Source: a virus
Lineage: Duplodnaviria; Heunggongvirae; Uroviricota; Caudoviricetes
Length of the DNA stretch: 64,000 bases
IMG/VR virus record: IMGVR_UViG_3300022562_001204
Span: 78,551-142,550 of that record
Reading direction: 5' to 3' (one strand)
Part shown: piece by piece, positions 1,235 through 64,000 of the stretch
Layout: each line of letters opens with the position of its first letter
How positions within the stretch are numbered: the stretch's first letter is position 1
Program-made: the position numbers and the translations under genes
The notes under the pieces: model-generated
What the model was told of the DNA's origin: nothing
Database searches by the model: none
Seen by the model: only the letters and a program-made list of their open reading frames with translations

Positions 1235-2533
1235 TTACTCGGCGCTGGAGCCTTGAATATTGGCGATCGACATGCCGATGTACTTCGTGGCATTTGCGAA
1301 GCCAGCGTAAGTTTCGGCCGGAAGCCTCATGTAGAAGTTGTTCATGATTCGCACACTCTGAGAGAGTATGAACTTCATGGTGTTCATTTGGGACCTGGAC
1401 AACTTCTTCAAGTCCTTCGAAGTACGATTGAAGTTCTGAAGGATGGTCTTAAGGTCACCCTTATCGGCCTTGACAGAGGCGTTAGCCTTACGAATCTCGG
1501 AGATGGCCGAGAGAAGTTCCTTGGCCAACGGAGCGATTTCGTTGGGTTTCAGAGCCGTCGCCGTCACCACCTGCTTCCGTGAATTACTGGGTCTGATCCA
1601 GGTAACGATAAACGGAATACCGTAAATCGAAGCGGGAATGGCGGATTTCGACAGAACGATACCACCGATCAGAGGACCCCGAGCCTCGTGGGTGGTTGAC
1701 TGAACCGAAGCGGTAGCTTTCGGAATGCCGTTGAAAAGCTTTTCTTCAACAGAGGTAAAGGTTTTGGCGGCTTTGGTCGCGTCGTCTTTCTCCATCGAGC
1801 TCTTCTGAAAGCCTTCGATTGCCGAAACAAGAGACTCTTTGGACGCGCTGACGAGTTTCACGGAGGAGACCGTGCGTTCGATCAGTTCGCTCAACGTTTT
1901 GGCGTTGGCCTGGGTTCCGTCACCGATCGCCCGGGCGATGGCCTTCGATTTGAACTCCGTGGCCTTCATCTCGCCTTTCAGCGACTTGGCCTGGGCTGAG
2001 TACTGCGTCAGCTTCTGCTCGAGATCGACATACTTGGAGTCGAGAGAAGCGAACAACTTGACGAAGGCGTCGCCAATCGCCGCCAGTTTCTTGAAGACAT
2101 TGCCGAGGATCGATTCGGAGGTCTTCTCGACACCGTCTTCCAAGGCCAGCTTGGTGGCGGCCAAACGCGACCGGGGGGACTGGAACGATTCCATACTCGG
2201 CAGGGACTTCCGGAGTTTGGTCGGCATGCCAAGACGATCACGGATCGACTCAATGGCCGTCTCAACCATTTCGGCAGCCTGGGGATCCAGACCTTCACCA
2301 GAATCGATTGCCGGCTGAATGGCCTCTTCGAGGTTTTCCAGAGTGGCCAGTGCTTCGAGACCGACCTCCACACCGGCCATGTTGTCGCTGGCGACAACGG
2401 CATAGCCGTCCATCTCGGCCATGGCGTCATCCAGTTCCGAGTGGGACGACAGGACGTCATCCTGGGCTGCGTCACCTGGGTTGAGTTCTTCCAGATCTGC
2501 GTCTTCGAGTGAAAAGAAAGTATTCTTCGACAT
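1235..2533 (-). CDS. acidic coiled-coil protein, paralog 1 of 3 (family with 2671..4044 and 4058..5257)
   Basis: The ORF track runs to 2635. The probable start is the ATG at 2533 (MSKNTFF), preceded by a GAGG SD. It shares the motif block E(T)AIESIRDRLG with the two plus-strand paralogs. TAA stop. Confidence 0.55.
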   Translation of the reverse strand: MSKNTFFSLEDADLEELNPGDAAQDDVLSSHSELDDAMAEMDGYAVVASDNMAGVEVGLEALATLENLEEAIQPAIDSGEGLDPQAAEMVETAIESIRDRLGMPTKLRKSLPSMESFQSPRSRLAATKLALEDGVEKTSESILGNVFKKLAAIGDAFVKLFASLDSKYVDLEQKLTQYSAQAKSLKGEMKATEFKSKAIARAIGDGTQANAKTLSELIERTVSSVKLVSASKESLVSAIEGFQKSSMEKDDATKAAKTFTSVEEKLFNGIPKATASVQSTTHEARGPLIGGIVLSKSAIPASIYGIPFIVTWIRPSNSRKQVVTATALKPNEIAPLAKELLSAISEIRKANASVKADKGDLKTILQNFNRTSKDLKKLSRSQMNTMKFILSQSVRIMNNFYMRLPAETYAGFANATKYIGMSIANIQGSSAE

Positions 2534-2670
2534 AGCGGCCTCTATGAGGATTGGAGATGAGAAATTCGATGGCGCAGAGCTGCACTCAAAAGATAGTAAG
2601 GTATACTGGTTTAGATATTCTCTGGTAACCAACAACCTGTGTCCACCCTTCCTATAAGGAACTAAAACGT

Positions 2671-4044: not shown

Positions 4045-4057
4045 CTCAGGAATCTCC

Positions 4058-5257
4058 ATGCTGAAAATCACGGTCGAGGGGGAGGAAATCCCCCTCCCGT
4101 CGATTGACCTCGAGGCTTACAGTGAGGTCCTGCTTCGTGCCGCTCAGCATGAGGAGGACTACGGTAACCTGGTCAATGACGGACTTGACGCCTACGCCAA
4201 CCTCGCGAATGCCCGTGAACACCTCACGGGCTTCAAACAAGCCCCGATCCCCCTGGCGACTCGTGGGCTGATCAACGTCATCATGGAGTCCACCCGACTC
4301 CAACTCGACGGAGAACCCGGCACATTCAGGGGTATCTCCCTCGAGTCTGATGAGGACGTCCTCCCACAGGTCGCCATCGAGGCCTTCACGGACACGATCA
4401 AGAAGATCATCGAGCGACTGATCAAGCTGATCAAGAAGATCTACCAGTCCTACGAGCGTATCCATCATGCCCTAGGCCGGGAGTACGCCCATAACCAGGA
4501 CAAGGTCAGGGATCTCCAGCATTACCTGGAAACTGCGGATGTCCTGGAACGTCCGGAATCCGGTACCGTGGAAGCTGTGGCTGTCAAGTCGTACTTTGGT
4601 TCTACGGACAAAGTGAATGCTCAGCATGTCCTGAAGGTCCTCAGGACCTCCCAGACCCTGGTCACCAACCTCTCCATCGGTTCGGATGCTTTCAGCGGTA
4701 TCATTGACAGCATGAAAACCGGGAAGGGTGAGGACTTCTCTGGGATCCGCACGAACTTGGAGAAAACCATGAGTGTCATGCTCAAGGGTCTCCCCAAGTA
4801 CAGTGAGGATGGCTACGGTCCGTTTGTGAGCTGCCGTGAACTCAAGGTCATCGAGAAGAACATCCCGCCCATGGGCCGGATTGAGACCCTGGAGTTCGTG
4901 CCGATCCTTGTCAAGGATCGGACAACGGTCGCCAGCATGAGCCGGGCAGAGGTCTATACGTTCCTGTCGTCCCTGTCGTCAGCCATGACAGATGCGGAGA
5001 AGTACTCCCTGGAGATGGGCAAGGCCAGGAGTCAGTTGAAGACCATCGAGGCTTTCCTTACGGAGACCAACCGTACGTTGCATCGAAACCAAGATGACAC
5101 GAAGGCCGACTACCTGAAAGCTTGTGCCGAGATCACTCGGCTCTTGGTTCGAGTAATGGACCGTAGCATGAATGATCTCCCAGTCACCCTGGAACGAGGG
5201 TACAAGACGGCGATCGCCTATGCCGTGGTCTGTGTCAAGGAACTGAAAAAGAAGTAA
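4058..5257 (+). CDS. acidic coiled-coil protein, paralog 3 of 3
   Basis: 399 aa with a TAA stop. Shares the MESTRLQLDG block and the overall N-terminal acidic layout. Confidence 0.6.
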   Translation: MLKITVEGEEIPLPSIDLEAYSEVLLRAAQHEEDYGNLVNDGLDAYANLANAREHLTGFKQAPIPLATRGLINVIMESTRLQLDGEPGTFRGISLESDEDVLPQVAIEAFTDTIKKIIERLIKLIKKIYQSYERIHHALGREYAHNQDKVRDLQHYLETADVLERPESGTVEAVAVKSYFGSTDKVNAQHVLKVLRTSQTLVTNLSIGSDAFSGIIDSMKTGKGEDFSGIRTNLEKTMSVMLKGLPKYSEDGYGPFVSCRELKVIEKNIPPMGRIETLEFVPILVKDRTTVASMSRAEVYTFLSSLSSAMTDAEKYSLEMGKARSQLKTIEAFLTETNRTLHRNQDDTKADYLKACAEITRLLVRVMDRSMNDLPVTLERGYKTAIAYAVVCVKELKKK

Positions 5258-12519: not shown

Positions 12520-12705
12520 TCAGTCCTTCTTATCCCGATCGCTCTGTACGGCCATCTGCCAGAGCCAAAAGGGCCAACTCACCACAACAATCACGATCCC
12601 CAACAACCGACCACTGACGTGACTGGGGTCGTTTCTGGATCGGATCAGGTCCAGAATAGCCACCAGCACCCCCACCAGGCCATAAGCCAGTATCCACCCG
12701 TCCAT
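12520..12705 (-). CDS. small two-helix membrane protein (61 aa)
   Basis: MDGWILAYGLVGVLVAILDL...IVIVVVSWPFWLWQ shows two TM segments. GGAG lies 6 nt before the ATG. It is in frame with the upstream gene, separated only by TAG-CAC. Confidence 0.45.
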   Translation of the reverse strand: MDGWILAYGLVGVLVAILDLIRSRNDPSHVSGRLLGIVIVVVSWPFWLWQMAVQSDRDKKD

Positions 12706-12708
12706 GTG

Positions 12709-13044
12709 CTACTCCGTGCTGTCCAAAAGCCGTTGGGTATCCTTCTTGATCTTCTCGATGAGAAGGTAGCTCATATCCAGAGCAGCCCTACGTGTTTCAT
12801 AATCCTTCCGAAGAAGGTCCAGTCGCTCTCGATCTCGTTCAGCCTGCTTCAGGTAGATCAGGTCCCTGAAGCGCAGATGGTTCCGCTTAGCCGTTTCGAT
12901 ACGCAGTTCGAAAATGCTTTCTGCTTCTATGAACTCTTCGAATTCACTGAAGCGTTTGCTACTATACTGTCCGAGCAGTCCAGACAGCTTCACCAGCAGT
13001 GACATCAATGTCGGGCGATCCATGGTATCGGTCTCATCCCACAT
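12709..13044 (-). CDS. coiled-coil protein (111 aa) terminated by TAG
   Basis: Charged heptad-like sequence preceded by TATATTAGTAAGGAGGTGAACG ATG. The stop is TAG at 12709..12711. Confidence 0.5.
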   Translation of the reverse strand: MWDETDTMDRPTLMSLLVKLSGLLGQYSSKRFSEFEEFIEAESIFELRIETAKRNHLRFRDLIYLKQAERDRERLDLLRKDYETRRAALDMSYLLIEKIKKDTQRLLDSTE

Positions 13045-13177: not shown

Positions 13178-13252
13178 TGGTGGCGCTAGAGGGACTCGAA
13201 CCCTCGTCTACGTGTTTAGAGCACGTCGCTCTTACCGCTGAGCTATAACGCC
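13178..13252 (-). tRNA. tRNA with anticodon CUA (amber/UAG suppressor), isotype undetermined
   Basis: Folded by hand from the reverse complement GGCGTTATAGCTCAGCGGTAAGAGCGACGTGCTCTAAACACGTAGACGAGGGTTCGAGTCCCTCTAGCGCCACCA. A 7-bp acceptor stem, a GCTC/GAGC D-stem, an ACGTG/CACGT anticodon stem with loop CU-CUA-AA (U33 and A37 present), a T-stem GAGGG/CCCTC with loop TTCGAGT, discriminator A and an encoded CCA are all present. Confidence 0.75.
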
Positions 13253-35010: not shown

Positions 35011-35412
35011 CTAGATCTCATACCCGATGAGGTTGTGGCCGTCATCAAGGAGCTTCGCCAGTTCGATGAGCTCTCGCATGTCGATGGTGAAGTCAAAATC
35101 GATGTGCTTCAACCATTCGTCAATGTTGGCACCGAGGTGCTGCGCAAGGGCCCTGAGCACATCCGCTGGGTCGTTCGTGAAAGCGATCGAGAGGTTGAGG
35201 TACTTCCTGGCTGTTTCAACGAGGGCCTCAGTGTAACTCTCCCAATCGACAGGTGTCTCCTCATCGATGATAGCAAAGTAGTACTCATCGGGGAAGATAG
35301 GCTGCTCCTCTTCAAATGAAAATGGATTGAAGAGGGTCCGGATCATCGGGGTGATGACCGCAGGGGTACCGAAACTCAAGAGGCCTGTGGTGATGTTGGT
35401 GCTATAAGACAC
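35011..35412 (-). CDS. acidic protein, short tandem paralog of 35594..36247 (TAG stop)
   Basis: 133 aa with a GTG start. It is about 60% identical to the N-terminal 130 aa of its neighbour (GTPAVITPMIRTLF, DEYYFAII, DGHNLIGY). The TAG stop falls exactly where the longer paralog continues. Confidence 0.5.
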   Translation of the reverse strand: MSYSTNITTGLLSFGTPAVITPMIRTLFNPFSFEEEQPIFPDEYYFAIIDEETPVDWESYTEALVETARKYLNLSIAFTNDPADVLRALAQHLGANIDEWLKHIDFDFTIDMRELIELAKLLDDGHNLIGYEI

Positions 35413-35593: not shown

Positions 35594-36247
35594 TTAAGAG
35601 CTGAGGTTGAACTTCTTCAGGACCTCCTTACGGATACCCTCATCGAAGATACTGTCGGTGATGGACTTGAAGTGAGCGTCCAGCACCTTCACGACCTCGT
35701 CGAGCCCGGTACCCAGCGCAACGTCGAGGTCTTCGGCGAGCTCCTTCCCGGTGTAAGTTGAGGTTGTTCGCAGAAGGTGTTGGGAGTAGTGCTGACTCCA
35801 ACCCCCGAACCCGAGGTATTCAGGCTGAGAGCTCCACCAGCTTCCCTGAATGCTGTACCCGATGAGGTTGTGGCCGTCGTTGAGGAGCTTCGCCAGGTCA
35901 AGAACCCAGTGCATTTCGATGCTGTAGTCGAAATCGATTTTCTTCAACCATTCGTCGATGTTGACGCCGACGTGCTGCGCAAGGGCCCTGAACACATCTG
36001 CGAAGTCATCCGTGAGGGTGATCGAGAGCTTGAGGTGTTCCTTGGCTGTTTCGACGAGAGCTTCAGCATAGCCCTCCCACTCGACAGGCGTCTCCTCTCC
36101 GATGATGGCGAAATAATATTCGTCTGGGCTGATGGTCTCCCCTTCTTCAAACAAAAACGGTGTGAAGAGAGTTCGGATCATCGGGGTGATGACCGAAGGG
36201 GTGCCAAACTTAAGAGCGCCGGTGGCGGTGTTATAGCTGTCAGACAT
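35594..36247 (-). CDS. acidic protein, long tandem paralog of 35011..35412
   Basis: 217 aa. ATG after CATATATAAAGGAGTAACACC. TAA stop. Confidence 0.5.
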   Translation of the reverse strand: MSDSYNTATGALKFGTPSVITPMIRTLFTPFLFEEGETISPDEYYFAIIGEETPVEWEGYAEALVETAKEHLKLSITLTDDFADVFRALAQHVGVNIDEWLKKIDFDYSIEMHWVLDLAKLLNDGHNLIGYSIQGSWWSSQPEYLGFGGWSQHYSQHLLRTTSTYTGKELAEDLDVALGTGLDEVVKVLDAHFKSITDSIFDEGIRKEVLKKFNLSS

Positions 36248-36268: not shown

Positions 36269-36273
36269 TCAGC

Positions 36274-36307
36274 ATACCCCCACGAGACCTATTCTCGTGG
36301 GGGTATG
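36274..36307. terminator. stem-loop catacccccacgaga-cctatt-ctcgtgggggtatg
   Basis: 14-bp perfect stem. Confidence 0.4.
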
Positions 36308-36311
36308 AATG

Positions 36312-36788
36312 TCAGTAGAAACTTTGAGGGTTCTTGAAGCTCTGGTAGTTCAGCAACATCGCAGCGGCAGCATAGACCACCAGGATCCATCCAGACCCGG
36401 CTAATGTCAGGACTCCTGCCAGGACAACCAGGGTATTTCGCATGTACCGTGTCGGGGAATTGTACAGACAGATCACGGAGACTGCCGTCACCATGGCTAC
36501 CACGCGGGCGGTAATGTCCATCGCCACGGCCAGGGGTCCCCAGATGTCTTCACCCACCGTTTGGACCAGAAGCCAGGGAACCATAGCCAGGATCACGGTT
36601 GTCGTGATGAACATCCCGGCGCTGCTGTACAGGGTGGACACCCCGTAGCATCGCTCGTCCAGATAGGCTGACATGGCAGATTTCTGGGAGAAGACGTACT
36701 GGCGCCCGTAGGCCCAGGTCATCAGGACTCCCGACAGGAACAACACCAGCGAGAAACCATTCAACAGAAGCTCAAGAAGCGTGAACAT
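36312..36788 (-). CDS. small polytopic membrane protein 1 of 8 (158 aa)
   Basis: About four hydrophobic helices. TACTATAAGGGAGTATCGCC before the ATG. TGA stop. Confidence 0.5.
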   Translation of the reverse strand: MFTLLELLLNGFSLVLFLSGVLMTWAYGRQYVFSQKSAMSAYLDERCYGVSTLYSSAGMFITTTVILAMVPWLLVQTVGEDIWGPLAVAMDITARVVAMVTAVSVICLYNSPTRYMRNTLVVLAGVLTLAGSGWILVVYAAAAMLLNYQSFKNPQSFY

Positions 36789-36813
36789 GGCGATACTCCC
36801 TTATAGTAATCGC

Positions 36814-37302
36814 TTATGATTCTTTCCACGTGGCGGATTGCCAGCGGAACAGTTGGAGCCGTCCGAGGATGAGGACGGCGATGCTAATGAAGATCAAAGC
36901 GGCGTTAAACGCCAGTAACAAAACCGAACATAACACAACAGCGATTCGACCTTGGCGGGAGAGGTCGAAGTTCAAGCCGACCACAATCCCCGCAATGAGA
37001 GTGGGGATGAGTCGACTCCCCAGAAGCACAGCCTCGACCACGGGGTCGTAGGCCCGCCCACCCAGCAGCTTCCCTGTTGCGTAACACAGTGCGGTCAGAA
37101 ACACCATAGCCCCACACAGCTTGGAGTGGTCCTCCACGATTCGACCAGTCCCCAAAGTCACGTGACCTTCCTTGGTCCGATAAGGGTCTCTCGACACTAC
37201 GTAGGTCATGGTCAGTCCATAGAGCCAGTGAAGCTCAATATAGAGCACCATAGACGCCAGGACTGTGTAGACCACGTAGCTGTTCGAGAAACACTCGTTC
37301 AT
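36814..37302 (-). CDS. small polytopic membrane protein 2 of 8 (162 aa)
   Basis: About four hydrophobic helices. GGAGGGG SD. TAA stop. Confidence 0.5.
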   Translation of the reverse strand: MNECFSNSYVVYTVLASMVLYIELHWLYGLTMTYVVSRDPYRTKEGHVTLGTGRIVEDHSKLCGAMVFLTALCYATGKLLGGRAYDPVVEAVLLGSRLIPTLIAGIVVGLNFDLSRQGRIAVVLCSVLLLAFNAALIFISIAVLILGRLQLFRWQSATWKES

Positions 37303-37303
37303 G

Positions 37304-37780
37304 TCACCCCTCCGTTGTTTGCTTTACCTTACGCCCAATGAGCCCCAAGAACACCACAGCAATGATGGCATTGAGCCAGCTGTATCCCAGTAACCCTATC
37401 GCACAGAACGTTACCAGAATTACCATTCGATTCGGGACTGCCAGGGTGACGTACCAAACCCAGACAATGATGGTCGCGATGCAAGCGATCAGAAGTATGG
37501 TGCTGTACTCGGCAGCCAGTAGAAACCCAGGACTTCCCACGGTAGGATGACCGTAATCAATGACGAGGTAGATCGCGAAATACCCCACGATACAGGCAAG
37601 TAACTGAGGGGCTTTCTTGTATATGTTCTCCCAGCACGCCTGCCTTTGTTTCTCTGGGAATACGACGAGGCTAAACATGTTGTCGAGTCCCGCTTTCAGA
37701 GTGGCTTTCGCTGTAACCAGTGCCGATATGACAAGCAGCAAGCAGAAGAAGTTGACGCTATAATCAAGAACGATGTTCAT
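37304..37780 (-). CDS. small polytopic membrane protein 3 of 8 (~158 aa)
   Basis: The track start lies inside the upstream gene. The ATG at 37780 (MNIVLDYS) follows GGGGAG. TGA stop. Confidence 0.5.
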   Translation of the reverse strand: MNIVLDYSVNFFCLLLVISALVTAKATLKAGLDNMFSLVVFPEKQRQACWENIYKKAPQLLACIVGYFAIYLVIDYGHPTVGSPGFLLAAEYSTILLIACIATIIVWVWYVTLAVPNRMVILVTFCAIGLLGYSWLNAIIAVVFLGLIGRKVKQTTEG

Positions 37781-38243
37781 TTTGCTCCCCAGATCTAAGT
37801 TTTGCGTCGTCTTCACACGACCACGCGAGCACACAGAACCCGACCCCTACCACCAGTACGGTCAGATTCAAGTTAAACATTATCAACGCCCCGACCAGGA
37901 AGACGAACCGAATGAAACGGAACGTCATGAGGTACATGGAGAGAATCGACGCTACCGTGACCCCTGAGAGTAGGTATGCCGACAGTACGGCCACCCTACG
38001 GACGCCCTCGCTCCCGTACCCGGTACCCAGAAGGTTGAGCATCCCAACAGCCGCCAGTGGTAAGAGCATGGATGCGAGAAGCGACCAGCGGGCGTCACTG
38101 ACCAGGGAGTATCCAGGGATACGGAGGTTGAACCGCCCCAACCAGGGTTCTTCTGGAACCAGGTAGTACCGGGTCGCTAGGTATGTAAAGCTCAATGAGC
38201 TCATGAGCAGCATCAAGTACAGCAGGTTAGCGATACTGTCCAT
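37764..38243 (-). CDS. small polytopic membrane protein 4 of 8 (159 aa)
   Basis: The ATG directly abuts the TAG of the upstream gene, in the same frame. AAAAAAAGGAACCGATAG precedes it. TGA stop. Confidence 0.5.
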   Translation of the reverse strand: MDSIANLLYLMLLMSSLSFTYLATRYYLVPEEPWLGRFNLRIPGYSLVSDARWSLLASMLLPLAAVGMLNLLGTGYGSEGVRRVAVLSAYLLSGVTVASILSMYLMTFRFIRFVFLVGALIMFNLNLTVLVVGVGFCVLAWSCEDDAKLRSGEQNEHRS

Positions 38244-38660
38244 CTATCGGTTCCTTTTTTGTGTTGCGAGGTTGTTTTCGATAAACAGGATGGGTAAAAC
38301 GACGGAGAGAGCGATCCCTACGGGGTTACCCAACCACCCAAGAATCACACCAGCCGGCATGAGGAGTATTTTGGTCGAGGTTTTAACCTCGAATTCAGAA
38401 CCCACGACAGCGATACTGACCAAGAATCCCTGAACACACGTCACGATGCCAACGAAGTGAAGGAAAGGCGTGTGTCCTGCCAGGTCGGTGACCAGTGCGA
38501 TGGCCAGTAGTGGAAGACCACCCACTAAGAGACAAACGACCTGATGTTTGTTACGCCGAACCTCAAAGTTGAAGAAGATCCCGTTGAGGACCACCCAGAA
38601 CGTTCCAAGCAGACTCACTGCTTGGAACGTCAGAAGTACCATGCTTTCTTGCTGGGTCAC
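38244..38660 (-). CDS. small polytopic membrane protein 5 of 8 (138 aa), TAG stop
   Basis: The stop is TAG at 38244..38246, immediately followed in frame by the next ATG. Confidence 0.5.
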   Translation of the reverse strand: MTQQESMVLLTFQAVSLLGTFWVVLNGIFFNFEVRRNKHQVVCLLVGGLPLLAIALVTDLAGHTPFLHFVGIVTCVQGFLVSIAVVGSEFEVKTSTKILLMPAGVILGWLGNPVGIALSVVLPILFIENNLATQKRNR

Positions 38661-39091
38661 GAGATCTTTGACCTGGTCTTGAAGTTCTCCATACTGACGG
38701 CTATCAGCATCGCTGATGCGATGAGCGCCAGTGTCACGGGATTCGAACCCGCTGCGAAGTGGGTGTAGTAGGACAGGGGCAGGCTAGCGATAACCAGCCC
38801 CGCACCGACGATCCGAAGACCCCGACTGTAGACACATCTGACGGTAAGTAGGGCCAACATGGTCGCGAACGAAAGGGAAATGCTGAACGCACCCAGCATC
38901 AGCGACAAGTTGGCAGCTGGGTCCTTGACCTGAAGGTAAATCAGCCAGTAGGCAGGATACAGGCCAACAACGACCAGCGCGGACAGCACGATGTTGGGTT
39001 TTGAGATCTGGGGACTGATGATCGCCATGGAGACCACGCTGACAAGAGCCAGCATGGCGACACCCAGTGCGAGGTGATGAAGATCATTCAT
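38657..39091 (-). CDS. small polytopic membrane protein 6 of 8 (~144 aa)
   Basis: The track ORF has a long Arg/Pro-rich N-terminal extension that is not believable. The ATG at 39091 (MNDLHHLALGV) follows CCAAGGAGTACCAGC. TGA stop. Confidence 0.5.
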   Translation of the reverse strand: MNDLHHLALGVAMLALVSVVSMAIISPQISKPNIVLSALVVVGLYPAYWLIYLQVKDPAANLSLMLGAFSISLSFATMLALLTVRCVYSRGLRIVGAGLVIASLPLSYYTHFAAGSNPVTLALIASAMLIAVSMENFKTRSKIS

Positions 39092-39512
39092 GCTGGTACT
39101 CCTTGGATTTGGTCCAACCGAAAAACACAACAATACAGACACAGACAAGGACGGGGACTGGGATGCCCTTGATGGCAAACACCAGGGAGACCCCCAGCCC
39201 AATGACTCGATACACAACAGCCAGCCGCTCTCGCGTGGCGAATACGGCAACCGCCATGGCGCCGCTGGTCCAGATACCGACCTGGGTCGTGGCCGACGCC
39301 AGCGAGGCGACCCCTGTACCGAGGTCATACATCCCACCCAGAGCCATCAAGGGACTCAGTACGCCCCCTATGTTCAGCCGTTCGATGATTGTGAACCTGG
39401 GTTTCTGGCTGGCGGGTCTCAAAATGTAAAAGACGGTCAGATAGATCAAGCTCGCAGTCATCACCACCAGCAGCACAGCATCTATCACGAAGAAGAGGGC
39501 GGTATCGTCCAT
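39084..39512 (-). CDS. small polytopic membrane protein 7 of 8 (~142 aa)
   Basis: The ATG at 39512 (MDDTALFFVID) follows CAAAAGGAAACTCACC. TGA stop. Confidence 0.5.
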   Translation of the reverse strand: MDDTALFFVIDAVLLVVMTASLIYLTVFYILRPASQKPRFTIIERLNIGGVLSPLMALGGMYDLGTGVASLASATTQVGIWTSGAMAVAVFATRERLAVVYRVIGLGVSLVFAIKGIPVPVLVCVCIVVFFGWTKSKEYQHE

Positions 39513-39988
39513 GGTGAGTTTCCTTTTGTCAGGCACTTACGGTTCTTGAAAGACCAGGCTGTAAGGCCCAGTAGTGGAAAAGGTGCCGCAATGAAGAGAT
39601 CGTTACACTGGGTGAACGCCAGTACGCCCATCATGATCAGACGGGCATACGTAGGGAGGGGTAACCAGGCATTGAACAGAATCGTGATCCCGATCGCCAC
39701 CGTCAGGGCAGAGATGTTTCGAACGATGTGTTCACAACCGGATACCCACGCCTCGCTGTGGCTAATGCTGAGCCAGCTGAACGCCCCAGCGGTGGTAATC
39801 AACTCGAAGAACCCAGACCCTCCGATCAGCAGCAGCACCATGACCCAGAGGTTCTTTTTGAACATGGGTTTCGATAAAGGGTAGTAGATGCCCTCCAGGA
39901 ACATCCGACAGCCATAGATGAAGATACCCCCCTGCATGAGCAGGAGGGTATAACACATCACTTCACGCACATACAGAGAGATCACCAC
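39485..39988 (-). CDS. small polytopic membrane protein 8 of 8 (167 aa)
   Basis: GTG start after AGGAGGACCCAA. TGA stop. Confidence 0.5.
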   Translation of the reverse strand: MVISLYVREVMCYTLLLMQGGIFIYGCRMFLEGIYYPLSKPMFKKNLWVMVLLLIGGSGFFELITTAGAFSWLSISHSEAWVSGCEHIVRNISALTVAIGITILFNAWLPLPTYARLIMMGVLAFTQCNDLFIAAPFPLLGLTAWSFKNRKCLTKGNSPWTIPPSSS

Positions 39989-40764: not shown

Positions 40765-41040
40765 AGTCCCTGTTCACCTATCAAATCCCCAGGACCTCTA
40801 GGTCCTGGGGCTATGCCATCTATTTTATTTTCTGGCGGGAAACCCTAGCCGAATCTAGGGCACCCGGTTATGCTAAGGAAACCCCCAGGTACAGTACCCG
40901 TACCCGGGGTCGGGCTTTAGTAGGTGGCGTTCCCAGGCGAGGGAAATGCGAGGGACTGGCAAAGTTTCATAATAGCCATTCGGGGCGCAGGCCAGGCTCG
41001 CAAGTTGCCACCTCAGGAAGAGGAGCTCAAGCATCGAGGT

Positions 41041-43247: not shown

Positions 43248-43505
43248 TCAGCTGGCCAGGTAGACCCGCTTCAATGTCGAGGTTTCACCTACATTACTGT
43301 ACATGGTCACCAACTTCTGGGTGGTCAAGTCGTAATAAAGATAGGCTTTTGATGTGTCCCCAGTAACGTCATTCTGATCGGTGATGGTATACACCCCTGA
43401 TCCAGAGCTCAACGGAACCATGGTAAAACGTTTCACTGTGAAACTCACTGGGTTCGGAGCGATGGTGATGTCCTGAACCAGCGAAGTATAACCGAGCGTA
43501 TCCAT
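43248..43505 (-). CDS. small protein downstream of fibre gene, copy 1 (candidate fibre assembly/chaperone)
   Basis: 85 aa. It is about 65% identical to 44561..44818 (shared MDTLGY...GDTSKAYLYYDLTTQ.LVT.YSNV.ETSTLKRVYLA) and is coupled to the upstream gene through GGAGGTGAT-ATG. Confidence 0.5.
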   Translation of the reverse strand: MDTLGYTSLVQDITIAPNPVSFTVKRFTMVPLSSGSGVYTITDQNDVTGDTSKAYLYYDLTTQKLVTMYSNVGETSTLKRVYLAS

Positions 43506-43506
43506 A

Positions 43507-44553
43507 TCACCTCCAGGGTCCGGTGATGTCGATCATGGCGTATCCTTGACCGACCCCTACATTCGAACTCGAATTGGTAACCCAGGTGCTTGTGTTGATA
43601 TAGCTAGATATCCCAACGATCATGAAGACCCGGTCTGTCATCCCTGTCACGTTAGTGAGGAGAATGTCGGTACCTGGCGACGCAGTAAGTTGGTCGTATA
43701 ATCCAGGGACAGCACCTACAATACGAGTGGTGGCCTCGGTTGGGATCTCTACCACATACACGGGTCTCGCAATGACACCAACGCCTTGTGAGTTCGGAAC
43801 TCCTAGTGAGTACCGTCGATATCCAAGACCGTTGTTGAGATAATCATCAATGTCAGTTGATGTGTTAATTAAACCTCTTGCAAAATCACTGGTGAGGTGC
43901 GCGTAGGGATTTACGCTAGAGCCGTCATACAGTTTCCAGGTCCTAGCGACTCTAGAATTAGTGCTGCTATTACTGATATAGGAAAGTCGCCCGTACCGAT
44001 TGTAAACACCCGGGAGGTTAGCTGCCGGGTCGAGATCGGTAATATCCCCATAAGTAGTTGCTGCATATGGGTGATCCCCAAAGGCAACCAAATCCCCGAA
44101 GAAGTACCCAGCGGCGAGTGTTGGGACGTCGGCATCCGGGTATGTGAAGAGATGAAAGCAATACTCGTCAGCGAATAACTTCCAGGGTCTCGTGGTCGTT
44201 GAGAGCTCGTCTGACTTGGTGATCGGAGACCCCTGGGTGTAGAGGGCGAGACCGTAGGCATTGGTGCCTGTGTCGATATCGGTCATCGTCTCATACGCGA
44301 TCCAACCCGCTTTCATGGCAGTATACGTGGCAGAAAATGCCGCGTCATCCTGAACACGGAGGTAGTGACGGTAACCCAGCAACGGTCTGAAGACCGCTAC
44401 GTTCGTCCCGGTGAACTCCTCGGACCAGCCGACAGGAGACTTTGACCCATACCCGTCTATCAGGCAGGCCCTGAGCACATCGAGTAGCGTACCGGCGGTA
44501 CCGCTGAGGGTAGGCGCGTCAGTGTCATCAGAATAATAGGCATATACCGTCAT
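43507..44553 (-). CDS. tail-fibre / receptor-binding-like protein, copy 1
   Basis: 348 aa. The N-terminal ~150 aa is near-identical to that of 44820..45863, with a divergent centre and a conserved C-terminal IDITGPWR. TGA stop. Confidence 0.55.
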   Translation of the reverse strand: MTVYAYYSDDTDAPTLSGTAGTLLDVLRACLIDGYGSKSPVGWSEEFTGTNVAVFRPLLGYRHYLRVQDDAAFSATYTAMKAGWIAYETMTDIDTGTNAYGLALYTQGSPITKSDELSTTTRPWKLFADEYCFHLFTYPDADVPTLAAGYFFGDLVAFGDHPYAATTYGDITDLDPAANLPGVYNRYGRLSYISNSSTNSRVARTWKLYDGSSVNPYAHLTSDFARGLINTSTDIDDYLNNGLGYRRYSLGVPNSQGVGVIARPVYVVEIPTEATTRIVGAVPGLYDQLTASPGTDILLTNVTGMTDRVFMIVGISSYINTSTWVTNSSSNVGVGQGYAMIDITGPWR

Positions 44554-44560
44554 AGTCGCT

Positions 44561-44818
44561 TCATCCTGCTAGGTAAACACGTTTAAGTGTGGAGGTCTCA
44601 GCGACGTTGCTGTAGATCGTCACCAGTTGTTGGGTGGTCAGGTCATAGTAGAGGTACGCCTTGGACGTATCTCCGGTCCCTGAGTCCACGTCCTTGGCCG
44701 AGAAAGCCAGTGATCCATCCGCCAACGGCACCACGGTCGGCACCTTTCTCAGAAATTCCACGGGACACTCTGACTGGAGTGGTTGGATAAAGAGTGAGTC
44801 GTACCCAAGCGTATCCAT
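44561..44818 (-). CDS. small protein downstream of fibre gene, copy 2
   Basis: 85-aa paralog of 43248..43505. Confidence 0.5.
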   Translation of the reverse strand: MDTLGYDSLFIQPLQSECPVEFLRKVPTVVPLADGSLAFSAKDVDSGTGDTSKAYLYYDLTTQQLVTIYSNVAETSTLKRVYLAG

Positions 44819-44819
44819 A

Positions 44820-45863
44820 TCACCTCCAGGGTCCGGTGATGTCGATCATGGCTGAACACTCCGCATTCGTTAAAGAGGCAGAGCCCTCCATAGCCCAATT
44901 ACTAGCATTGTAATAACCGCTGACCCCTATTGTCAGAAACACCCGGTCCGTCATACCGGTCACATTGGTAATCAAGGTTCGGTGAGCTGGGGCTACAGTG
45001 AGTTGATCATAGAGTCCAGGAATCGCACCAGTAATTCGACTCGTAGCCTCTGTAGGGGTCTCCACCGCGTAAACGGGTCTTGCAATGACGCCTACACCGC
45101 TCGAGTTTGGAGTACCTATCATCCAACGACGTTTACCCAGCGAGCTTTCAACGTTATAGATTGCGTTCACTGAGCTAGTCACATATCCTCGGACGAACGT
45201 ACTGGTCAGCTTTATGGGCATATTAACGGTCGTCCCATCAAAATTCCCAGCTGCCCTAGCCCAGAACATCCCATCCCCAGTCGCACTCAGTGAACACATG
45301 GGCGAGTACCGGTTATAGACAACCGGCTGCCCCGTGGGGTCTCCATCAACGACATCGCCGTAAAGCAGTGTTGAATACAGATGTCCGCCATAAGCGACGG
45401 CATCTCCAAAGAAGTATCCAGCCCCAGAAGTTGGATTATCAGCATCTGGATAGGTAAACAGGTGGAAACAATACTCATCACCAACGAGGATCCAGGGACG
45501 TGTCGTGGTAGAGAGTTCATCCGACTTGCTGATGGTCGACCCTTGGGTGTACGTGGCGAGACCGAAGGCGTCGGTGCCTGTGTCGATATCGGTCATGGAC
45601 TGATACCCGATCCACACGGCCTTCATCTCGGTATAGGTGGTCGATACAGCACCATCATCCTGGATTCTCAGGTAATACCGACGTCCTTGAGGAGCACGAA
45701 ACACCGAGACGTTCGTCCCAGTGAACTCCTCCGACCAGCCCAGAGGGTCGATGCTGCCATACCCGTTGACCAGGCAGGCTTTCAGAACGTCCAGAAGGGC
45801 ACCAGCGGTTCCGGACAGTACCGGAGCCCCGGAGTCGTCGGAGTAGTAGACGCGTACAGTCAT
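44820..45863 (-). CDS. tail-fibre / receptor-binding-like protein, copy 2
   Basis: 347-aa paralog of 43507..44553. Confidence 0.55.
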   Translation of the reverse strand: MTVRVYYSDDSGAPVLSGTAGALLDVLKACLVNGYGSIDPLGWSEEFTGTNVSVFRAPQGRRYYLRIQDDGAVSTTYTEMKAVWIGYQSMTDIDTGTDAFGLATYTQGSTISKSDELSTTTRPWILVGDEYCFHLFTYPDADNPTSGAGYFFGDAVAYGGHLYSTLLYGDVVDGDPTGQPVVYNRYSPMCSLSATGDGMFWARAAGNFDGTTVNMPIKLTSTFVRGYVTSSVNAIYNVESSLGKRRWMIGTPNSSGVGVIARPVYAVETPTEATSRITGAIPGLYDQLTVAPAHRTLITNVTGMTDRVFLTIGVSGYYNASNWAMEGSASLTNAECSAMIDITGPWR

Positions 45864-51301: not shown

Positions 51302-52021
51302 TTAACCGCGACGGAAGAGTGCGATGTCATACCCCAGTGTTTCTGTACCGTCACCCAGAGCGTCGATCAGTGGTTGATTCACTTCTTGACCGTTATGCTC
51401 GGCTAGGTGCACACTGGTCAAATTGACGACCACTTCGCCCAGGTCCCTGCGAAGCAGTACCTCGACATTCAACTGAATAAAGTGCACGTGATGATCACAT
51501 ACCAGTGAGCGCAATCGAGGGTCTGTCAGCAGGCTACCATTTATCTGACGGGTCTTGGCGGATAGACCGACTACCACATAGTCGAAAGTATCGGACTCAA
51601 GCGAAAAGACATTGGTGAACATATCGGGCATCGAAGAACGGGCACTGCTGAATGCGACGACATTGTCACCGATCTTCATGTAGATCGTCATAAAGGCCCC
51701 ACACGTCATCAGCCCGTCAATAGACGAATGAAGTCTATCCCGGGCGGTGTCCTCGGTCATGGACACCGCGAGCATGTCGTATTTGACACCGAACTTCATG
51801 GGGGCGGTCGTTACGACATGGCCCGAGTCCAGTCTGACTCGCTTGGCCGGGACAAACGACTCATCAACGAAGAGGTGTCTGGTGGATTCGGTGACGACGG
51901 GGACGCAGAGCCTTGGGAGGCTTCGATTGAAGGGGAGCCGTTCGGTCGTATCTTGAAGTGACAACGGATCTTTCAGCGCATCCGCCAGGTTAGTTTCGCT
52001 GAACTGGATTGTCTGGGCCAT
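51302..52021 (-). CDS. hypothetical protein (239 aa)
   Basis: GAATAAGGAATAACA before the ATG. TAA stop. Confidence 0.5.
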   Translation of the reverse strand: MAQTIQFSETNLADALKDPLSLQDTTERLPFNRSLPRLCVPVVTESTRHLFVDESFVPAKRVRLDSGHVVTTAPMKFGVKYDMLAVSMTEDTARDRLHSSIDGLMTCGAFMTIYMKIGDNVVAFSSARSSMPDMFTNVFSLESDTFDYVVVGLSAKTRQINGSLLTDPRLRSLVCDHHVHFIQLNVEVLLRRDLGEVVVNLTSVHLAEHNGQEVNQPLIDALGDGTETLGYDIALFRRG

Positions 52022-62260: not shown

Positions 62261-64000
62261 TTATGAACCCTTCGGGTAGTACCCAAGAGGGACCATAAAG
62301 TCGCTGGTGTACCGACAGACGCCTCGTGTGATACGAAGGCCCTTGAGGTACCCCTTCATGTAGCGAGAGGTGAATGATGAGTTCTGCCACCCAATGCGAA
62401 TCGCGGTCCCATTGTCGGCGTTGACACCTGTTTCGGTACCAGAAGCCTCGAGGTGTCCATTCAGGAACAGGTACCAGTTACCGGAAGCGTCACGGGTTGC
62501 GGCAACATGACACCAGGTGTCAAGCGTCACCGCAGTGGTTGAGAGCAGGTTGATTGCCGTGGTACCTGCTGGCGAGTAGTGAATGAAACTCACTAGCCCA
62601 CTCGAAGATACCGAGAGGTTCCACCCCGTAGCCCCGCCAGTATCTGTCTCTCGTCGAGAGACCAGGGTACTATTGTCAGAGAAGGAAGTGATATTGGCGA
62701 AGATCTCGATGGTAAACGCGACGTCTGGTACCCAGTTAGTTGAGGTCGGGATGGTGACGTAACTACTGGCGCTACAAGTATAGGCCGTTCCAAAGTCGCC
62801 ATAGGGACCGTCAACCAGGGTAGAGGTCGGGGATCCCACCGTTGTCAGCGTTCCAACCACTTCGTCAGCAAAAGTTGTAGTCCCGACTCGCATATCCAGA
62901 CTGGAGAACGACACCACGCTGGCCCAATAAGGATCCTTCCAGGGCTGGTTGTCCTTATATAGGTGGTCATCTGCGAAGTTGCCAGTGAGTCCGTACTTGT
63001 GTGCCAGGTACCCTTCTACACGACGGGGGTCGTAAAGGTTGGGTTTGCTCTTACCAAAGACCGTTTCGGCTAGTTTCCCAGGGAAGTAGTTCACGGAAGC
63101 CGGGGTAGCCGAGTTACTGGCACCGATACGGCTGTAGTCCAGGGCGGACGTACTCGAACCACTACCCGTTCCTGAGAAGGTTCCAGTTACATAGTCGACC
63201 TGAATACCGTCTTGGTAAGCCTCGATCGTTCTGGAGTTTGTACTGACGTTGACCCCAGAAATGGTCCAGGTATCTGCGACGGCGTTGAAATCACCCGTGT
63301 AGATACTTCCAGTATCGGAGGTTCTAACCCCGATGTGGAAGGGCGTCAGCGTAATACGAGCCGCTCCAGCGCTGTTTGCAGATGCAAAACTGACCAGAGG
63401 GTACCCGTCTGTAGCGACATCCACGCTATAAAGCATGTACCCCCAGAACTGGTTTAGGGAGTTCCAAAGCGCAGCTGCCCCAGTGATCTTCAAAAACTGA
63501 TCGGTACCATTGAAGACCAGGACATCGTGACCATTGAGGGCGTCTGCCTCGTAAGTCGGTGCCGTCCCCGTCGTGCCTGTTGCTGTGTAGCCACTTCCGG
63601 CCACATCCGCCCACGAGAGGATCTCAGTGCCGCTGTAAGTGAAACTCTCGTCACCGTTGTACCAGATAACGGGCTTAGCCAGCTGCATAGAAGCAGGGGT
63701 CCACTCCTCATTGATACGAACCAAGGCGGTGGCGTTATCGCCAAGGTATCCATCTCCCTGGTAGTTGGACAATACGACCGTAAGCGTCTTTGGCCAGTCC
63801 TCAGACGCAAAGATCTGGAACTCAATGAACTGATCCTCCGCATCCCCGTCTGCCCAGGTAAGGGTGCCGGCGATACCGGCATACTCGTTACCCAGGGTGG
63901 CCGTACCGTCAACAAAGGCATAGTCGACCGATACGGTACCAAAGGTGTCCTCTGTGCGAGTGACCCTGAGGGTAGCCGTATCACCTGCGACGTCATATTC
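62261..64000 (-). CDS. large structural protein (partial, N-terminus beyond window) with Calx-beta-like and LamG-like domains
   Basis: The ORF-track start at 63772 is an internal TTG. Hand-translating 63773..64000 in the same frame gives 76 further codons without a stop (…VSVDYAFVDGTATLGNEYAGIAGTLTWADGDAEDQFIEFQIFASEDWPKTLTVVLSNYQ…), a Calx-beta-like motif. The C-terminal part reads …GYLKGLRITRGV, LamG-like. TAA stop. Confidence 0.6.
   Translation of the reverse strand, partial: EYDVAGDTATLRVTRTEDTFGTVSVDYAFVDGTATLGNEYAGIAGTLTWADGDAEDQFIEFQIFASEDWPKTLTVVLSNYQGDGYLGDNATALVRINEEWTPASMQLAKPVIWYNGDESFTYSGTEILSWADVAGSGYTATGTTGTAPTYEADALNGHDVLVFNGTDQFLKITGAAALWNSLNQFWGYMLYSVDVATDGYPLVSFASANSAGAARITLTPFHIGVRTSDTGSIYTGDFNAVADTWTISGVNVSTNSRTIEAYQDGIQVDYVTGTFSGTGSGSSTSALDYSRIGASNSATPASVNYFPGKLAETVFGKSKPNLYDPRRVEGYLAHKYGLTGNFADDHLYKDNQPWKDPYWASVVSFSSLDMRVGTTTFADEVVGTLTTVGSPTSTLVDGPYGDFGTAYTCSASSYVTIPTSTNWVPDVAFTIEIFANITSFSDNSTLVSRRETDTGGATGWNLSVSSSGLVSFIHYSPAGTTAINLLSTTAVTLDTWCHVAATRDASGNWYLFLNGHLEASGTETGVNADNGTAIRIGWQNSSFTSRYMKGYLKGLRITRGVCRYTSDFMVPLGYYPKGS

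Follow-up and report, generated by a model that had tools for sequence, protein, structure and literature searches.

Coupled cistrons of phages and bacteria lie on the same strand and abut or overlap at ATGA, at TAATG or at a stop codon directly followed by ATG, with the Shine-Dalgarno (SD) motif of the downstream gene inside the upstream gene. A junction of this kind is present in a window of 64,000 nucleotides (nt) of phage DNA (positions 78,551 to 142,550 of the IMG/VR record IMGVR_UViG_3300022562_001204; the window is the whole stretch that was analysed, and all coordinates refer to it), in which two small membrane-protein genes on the minus strand, g4 (38244..38660) and g5 (37764..38243), meet as TAG-ATG. 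They are the fourth and fifth units of an array in which eight ORFan genes for membrane proteins, g1–g8, are tightly packed (36312..39988, minus strand). From coupled cistrons in general the g4/g5 junction does not differ in any essential respect; it has to be added that the stop codon is TAG in a genome that encodes a tRNA with the anticodon CUA (tRNA-CUA). An earlier note on this DNA had proposed that amber suppression here would fuse the two proteins into one with eight helices. We consider it probable that g4 and g5 are autonomous cistrons whose junction reflects ordinary translational coupling within a lineage-specific array of eight genes for small inner-membrane proteins.

Programmed read-through of stop codons is known, for example, from phage Q-beta, whose A1 protein is a UGA read-through isoform. 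The g4/g5 junction is alike in that an open reading frame (ORF) follows in frame after a stop codon of the leaky type and that two products could come from one message. Known read-through extensions, however, have no initiation site of their own and are conserved and functional, whereas the downstream ORF here is autonomous, having its own SD motif and ATG. Closer in genome type is the Xanthomonas phage XacN1, which is likewise a jumbo phage with the standard genetic code and a CUA tRNA. When 18 amber stops of XacN1 were read through in silico, no recognisable extensions or targets were found (PMC5852040). In the window, by contrast, two of nine amber stops are followed at once, and in frame, by the next gene; and whereas XacN1 has dozens of tRNAs, the window has one. 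A phage-encoded CUA tRNA is also a property of the phages in which TAG is recoded to glutamine (code 15), which are found among the crAss-like, the Lak and some jumbo phages (PMC13037316, PMC9523058). In these phages in-frame TAGs fragment hallmark genes, and the gain in coding density upon reading TAG as sense is at least 10%, whereas here there is no fragmentation and the gain is 1.6 percentage points. As to the proteins themselves, the class I holins (e.g., S105 of phage lambda) are small phage inner-membrane proteins with the N-terminus outside and the C-terminus inside (N-out/C-in) and with a basic C-tail. The array proteins resemble them in the short N-terminus free of lysine and arginine (K/R), in the predicted odd number of membrane crossings and in the basic, presumably cytoplasmic C-tail; they are unlike them in their length of 130–165 amino acids (aa), in an extra hairpin and in occurring in eight tandem copies. 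No sequence or fold match was found, nor was an endolysin recognised next to the array; we do not claim that the proteins belong to this class.

Across the g4/g5 junction the minus strand reads ...ACA CAA AAA AGG AAC CGA TAG ATG GAC AGT..., the TAG stop of g4 (38244..38246) being abutted by the ATG start of g5 (38243..38241) with a gap of 0 nt, just as the earlier note had it. The two ORFs were also delimited correctly in that note. g4 encodes 138 aa from a GTG at 38660, which overlaps the stop of g3 as GTGA, or 132 aa from an ATG at 38642; g5 encodes 159 aa and ends in a TGA within a 17-nt overlap with g6. In a codon model trained on long genes of the same phage both genes score 0.17–0.19 log-units per codon in these frames and negatively in the other frames. 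That g4 and g5 are in one frame is true; it is, however, automatic, because the gap between stop and start is 0 nt, and is therefore no independent fact. Within the 3' end of g4 lies an SD-like AAGGAA (38251..38256) for g5, with a spacing of 8 nt between AAGGA (38256..38252) and the ATG. The embedded SD motif was thus rightly recognised before, except that the run of A comprises six A rather than seven. As g5 has its own SD motif and start, both separate products can be made, as the note had likewise considered. The same motif type and spacing recur before g2, g3, g6, g7 and g8. Other gene calls, from JGI and Logan assemblies, either have g4 and g5 split or call g5 alone as a 159-aa gene. The RNA around the TAG of g4 folds with z = −1.65, 11 of 200 shuffles folding equally well, and in comparison with these 200 shuffles no significant structure near the TAG that could stimulate read-through was found.

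The eight genes of the array follow one another on the minus strand as g1 (39485..39988), g2 (39084..39512/39536), g3 (38657..39091), g4, g5, g6 (37304..37780), g7 (36814..37302) and g8 (36312..36788). Their products are of similar size (about 130–165 aa each) and very hydrophobic, which is why the coding strand is strongly T-rich at the array, and in the codon model each of the eight ORFs is rated as coding in its own frame. The junctions are a GTGA overlap, a 28-nt overlap, a ATGAATGA overlap, a second GTGA overlap, TAG-ATG, an overlap of 17 nt and gaps of 1 and 25 nt, the overlaps thus measuring 4, 8, 17 or 28 nt. An SD-like motif at normal spacing precedes the start of each of the eight genes. 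Within the array g4 and g5 have six companions of similar size, all with starts of their own, and the reading of the junction as a device for fusing them is unsupported; a stop codon directly followed by a start is one of several forms that tight packing takes within the array. The junction itself is routine compact gene packing and of little importance alone.

Promoter-like sites within the array are as numerous as expected from shuffles. Nine terminator-like sites were found in the scanned region versus 5.1 expected, and most of them are located outside the array. Directly after the stop of g8 there is a GC-rich hairpin (36273..36307, minus strand) with a perfect 15-bp stem and a 5-nt loop and lacking a T-run, which is probably the 3' boundary of the array transcript. 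An 80-aa gene, a 174-aa gene and g1–g8 form a block, and the intergenic region upstream of it contains a cluster of three further GC-rich hairpins at about 40790..40910. These and the hairpin at 36273..36307 may mark the ends of transcripts or sites of processing. Directly downstream of the array two adjacent minus-strand genes (35011..35412 and 35594..36247) encode soluble proteins that are paralogues, with a clear resemblance in their N-terminal regions (...GLLSFGTPAVITPMIRTLFNPFSFEEE... versus ...GALKFGTPSVITPMIRTLFTPFLFEEG...).

From this arrangement the following course of expression can be proposed. The genes g1–g8 would be co-transcribed and, judging from their packing, translationally coupled. 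Ribosomes would terminate at the UAG of g4, and g5 would be initiated from its own AAGGA, either de novo or by termination-reinitiation. If tRNA-CUA were active at the time of array expression, a certain amount of g4-X-g5 protein would be formed as an unselected by-product, in which the g5 half would have to take up the wrong orientation.

The reason for assuming a wrong orientation is the topology that is predicted for the array proteins, all eight of which have one charge and hydropathy pattern in common. An N-tail of 0–11 residues with zero K/R precedes the first transmembrane helix (TM1). The loop between TM1 and TM2 is rich in K/R (30, summed, like the following numbers, over the eight proteins), the loop between TM2 and TM3 is almost free of them (7) and after TM3 there is a short basic loop (15). 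Then comes a last hydrophobic run of 28–41 uncharged residues that is interrupted in its middle by polar or charged ones (e.g., D in g1, K in g2, GNP in g4 and NLN in g5), and a basic C-tail (22 K/R) closes the proteins. If the last run is considered to be a helical hairpin, the resulting five-segment N-out/C-in model has 67 K/R inside and 8 outside, versus 45:29 at best in a four-helix model. It is established knowledge that positively charged residues are preferentially retained on the inside (positive-inside rule). AlphaFold2, with an alignment of only the eight paralogues as input, independently predicted for g4 the helices 2–30, 32–53, 58–83, 88–103 and 107–131 (mean confidence score pLDDT 68.9) and for g5 the helices 2–28, 41–71, 77–104, 109–122 and 127–158 (pLDDT 59.6), that is five main helices also in g5. 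Foldseek found nothing significant for the g4 model among the viral structures of BFVD, the best E being 0.88. The favoured model is consequently one in which all eight proteins would be N-out/C-in, with three TM helices, a C-terminal helical hairpin and a basic cytoplasmic tail. The earlier note had described g4 and g5 as four-helix proteins; hydropathy, charge pattern and AlphaFold2 instead point to five hydrophobic segments, probably in both.

According to the positive-inside rule, the K/R pattern predicts a cytoplasmic C-terminus for g4 and a periplasmic native N-terminus for g5. With g4 C-in and g5 N-out, a g4-g5 fusion would invert g5. The two parts would be connected by a linker of approximately 18 residues (...ENNLATQKRNR-X-MDSIAN...), and in the inverted g5 8 of 10 K/R of loops and tail would be outside, or 9 of 11 if the single K/R that lies within a segment is included. 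The topology check of the single and the fused proteins, which the note had recommended, thus speaks against the fusion, since in the best model both units are N-out/C-in. It should be mentioned, however, that in the disfavoured four-helix model, which is N-out/C-out, the fusion is topologically possible. The topology argument against a g4-g5 fusion is therefore strong but not decisive.

Do in-frame junctions occur preferentially after TAG? For the counts a crude gene set was used, which comprises approximately 83 minus-strand genes in the window and approximately 82 junctions. The stop codons of these genes are TGA in 40 cases, TAA in 34 and TAG in 9, TAG being the rarest, and g4/g5 alone has a 0-nt junction. 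In-frame junctions without an intervening stop number nine, five after TAA (gaps of 6, 12, 15, 96 and 180 nt), two after TAG (0 and 3 nt) and two after TGA (51 and 165 nt). Comparison of TAG with the other stops gave p = 0.25 (Fisher) for all of these junctions and p = 0.089 for those with gaps of 15 nt or less. Read-through would open at least 55 codons after 2 of 9 TAG, 7 of 34 TAA and 9 of 40 TGA stops (p = 1.0), and the extension lengths are alike between the stops (Mann-Whitney p = 0.37). The remaining seven TAG stops in the window have unremarkable extensions of 1–16 codons. In 9.4 kb of additional flank of the same genome there are 10 more genes, none of them ending in TAG, and two further in-frame TAA junctions with gaps of 9 and 33 nt. 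TAG is thus not followed by in-frame stop-free junctions more often than TAA or TGA.

When the long frames that are joined by a TAG were inspected, only one junction besides g4/g5 was found to be genuine. It is located at 12520..13044 on the minus strand, where a soluble 111-aa ORF (12709..13044) ends with GAG-TAG-CAC-ATG in frame into a 61-aa ORF with two TM helices (12520..12705) that has its own GGAG as SD motif. Directly upstream of the pair are the gene for tRNA-CUA and the hairpin that belongs to it, and after the pair comes a hairpin that is terminator-like. The base after the TAG (+4) is C at this junction versus A at g4/g5. Two other candidates were discarded: the TAG at 4472 (minus strand, frame 4046..4978, with 168 + 141 open codons) is antisense to a plus-strand gene for an internal head protein (4058..5257), and the TAG-joined frame at 38784 is non-coding and overlaps g3.

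Relatives of the array proteins were looked for by several routes. The g4-Q-g5 fusion had no hits other than self-hits in a word-indexed search of 5.8 billion proteins, in a tblastn search of 50,697 phage records and in a scan of metagenome contigs. An exhaustive phmmer search of 1.84 billion representatives with g5 returned g5 alone, a profile made of all eight array proteins recovered only array members, and in Pfam, PHROGs, NCBIfam and PADLOC there was no match above threshold. Exact-protein lookup of g4 with an M start yielded no record. With the read-through fusion of 12709/12520 the 111-aa protein matched itself, and homologues, fused or separate, were not found. In the databases searched the array proteins are thus without a detectable relative outside this phage. 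Among themselves they are probably very diverged paralogues: several pairs have z values of 2.6–4.4 against shuffles, forward alignments outscore reversed-sequence controls overall (Wilcoxon p = 0.016), and in a multiple alignment the sequences are 14–20% identical to the first one (g1). At the DNA level only chance-level repeat matches were detected inside the array.

The tRNA-CUA (13178..13252, minus strand, followed by a hairpin) is the single tRNA of the window and is encoded on the same strand as g4 and g5. It is a canonical class-I tRNA of the amber-suppressor type that matches the tRNA model of Rfam over its full length with 72.7 bits. It has a D-loop containing GG, a 5-bp anticodon stem, a variable loop of approximately 5 nt, A36-A37-A38, the discriminator base A73 and an encoded CCA. 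The label "Pyl" given by ARAGORN is based only on the anticodon. tRNA-Pyl is atypical in having a small D-loop without GG, a 3-nt variable loop and a 6-bp anticodon stem, and it goes together with pylS/pylBCD; the architecture found here is not of that type, no search aimed at pyl genes having been made. In a blastn search against phage records the only matches, an unannotated site and a tRNA-Gly, were weak.

Since tRNA-CUA is encoded on the same strand, some read-through at the TAG of g4 is chemically possible. This part of the amber-suppression proposal stands, with the fusion as a possible by-product; no sign that it is programmed was found. The step to a meaningful fusion is unsupported, considering that TAG is not enriched at in-frame junctions, that g5 would be inverted, that no significant RNA structure was found at the TAG and that the genes have their own starts.

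It should be noted that several observations weigh against the explanation by an ordinary coupled junction within an array of paralogues. A functional-looking amber-suppressor tRNA is present, and TAG-A, as found at the end of g4, is a favourable context for amber suppression in Escherichia coli. The TAG of g4 is only one transition away from TAA and has nevertheless been kept. Both in-frame junctions with a stop-to-ATG gap of 3 nt or less use TAG, which is the stop codon of only 9 of 83 genes (Fisher p ~0.01, with the 3-nt cutoff picked post hoc, after the data had been seen). The paralogy signal among g1–g8 is weak, and in the pairwise comparison of g4 with g5 there is none. Finally, the topology was deduced by hand from hydropathy and the positive-inside rule, and from AlphaFold2 models of low to moderate confidence (pLDDT 60–69).

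A rival explanation is programmed partial read-through, in which tRNA-CUA would decode the UAG of g4 in some of the ribosomes, resulting in a g4-g5 protein beside the separate ones, and in which, by the same regulated isoform switch, the 111-aa protein would be anchored to the 61-aa TM protein at 12709/12520. Besides the canonical structure of the tRNA, with its A36-A37-A38 anticodon loop and encoded CCA, and the use of TAG at the two tightest in-frame junctions, it can be put forward for this explanation that one of the two tight TAG junctions lies directly downstream of the tRNA gene, that at both of them the downstream partner is a membrane protein, and that the suppressor tRNAs of jumbo phages with the standard code have no known targets. 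However, TAG is not enriched in frame under the natural cutoffs, both downstream genes have SD motifs and ATGs of their own, no stimulatory RNA structure was found at the g4 TAG, and the g4-g5 fusion is frustrated in the best topology model. Fused homologues were not found in any collection searched, the other seven TAG stops lead nowhere beyond 16 codons and none of the 10 flank genes has a TAG stop. Taken together, we regard programmed partial read-through as unlikely. Somewhat more doubtful still is the specific proposition that tRNA-CUA has g4/g5 (at 38244) and 12709/12520 as its natural targets and operates an isoform switch there without genome-wide recoding.

Reassignment of TAG to a sense codon, as in code 15, would make g4-g5 a single gene with an internal TAG. 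The presence of a CUA tRNA is in accordance with this, and it has been reported that jumbo phages can be recoded and that recoding can be patchy along the genome (PMC13037316). However, neither in the window nor in the 9.4-kb flank is there a TAG interrupting a long or conserved gene, and the structural genes, namely those for the tail, the internal head, the PhiKZ_MCP-like, the 1083-aa and the 784-aa proteins, are intact under code 11. The coverage by ORFs, determined greedily, increases from 91.3% to only 92.9% when TAG is taken as sense; the published criterion for recoding is that coding density rises by 10% or more (PMC13037316). Moreover, the ATG and the SD motif of g5 are located exactly at a unit boundary of the eight-unit array. 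The phage uses the standard genetic code, in which TAG is not recoded, and for this window reassignment is largely refuted and very improbable. Equally hard to believe is that g4-g5 is a decaying former two-unit gene split by a nonsense mutation, as an in-frame TAG between two hydrophobic ORFs might suggest, for all eight units share single-unit size and architecture, a proper SD motif and ATG of g5 are in place at the TAG, both halves have kept their coding signature, and the basic C-tail of g4 and the K/R-free N-tail of g5 resemble the native termini of the other units.

The phage that carries g4 and g5 is an uncultivated, phiKZ-like jumbo phage. The window encodes two phiKZ-like internal head proteins of the family PF12699 (2671..4044 and 4058..5257, plus strand), in opposite orientation to these an internal-head-protein-like protein (phrog_2497; 1235..2635, minus strand), a 239-aa PhiKZ_MCP-like protein (51302..52021), a tail protein and an NAD-dependent ligase. 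The closest deposited phages share approximately 25–30% amino-acid identity in conserved proteins, and megablast against phages gave no nucleotide match. Scans of IMG/VR with flanking genes and large proteins revealed no relatives, or merely two loci that match the 1083-aa protein locally over a short stretch. The same genome is present in the JGI metagenome 3300015263 as 100% identical contigs, and on a contig of 257,149 bp. Exact-protein lookups showed that Logan SRR14699976 contains a slightly different strain of the same phage, in which g5–g8 are called at equal lengths, with g5 identical; g4 is not called there, an antisense 74-aa gene being called at its place. Elsewhere the gene lengths of this strain differ, for example 1416 versus 1078 aa for the Laminin_G/Calx-beta protein.

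Some other features of the genome were recorded in passing. The ORF at the end of the window (62261..64000 and beyond) is part of the 1078-aa Laminin_G_3/Calx-beta protein, and the genes further downstream encode tail-like proteins, 1076–1083 aa and twice 784 aa in length. On the minus strand there is a tandemly duplicated gene pair (43248..45863), one copy of which consists of 44820..45863 (347 aa) and 44561..44818 (85 aa) and the second copy of 43507..44553 (348 aa) and 43248..43505 (85 aa); the junction sequences of the two copies are near-identical (51-nt matches at 96%).

What do the array and the tRNA mean for this phage and its relatives? Suppressor tRNAs do occur in phages with the standard code, and with 38244 and 12709 two candidate targets can now be named. 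If read-through at these sites were true, expression of the tRNA would result in a doubled membrane unit and in a membrane-anchored form of the soluble 111-aa protein, and the question of what suppressor tRNAs act upon would become experimentally approachable. The array itself is of a familiar kind, namely small phage membrane proteins encoded in a compact operon. That its products act at the host membrane, in remodelling, exclusion or an immunity-type function, is only a guess. As an uncharacterised array of lineage-restricted small membrane proteins in a very divergent phiKZ-like jumbo phage, it may merit annotation as a paralogue expansion.

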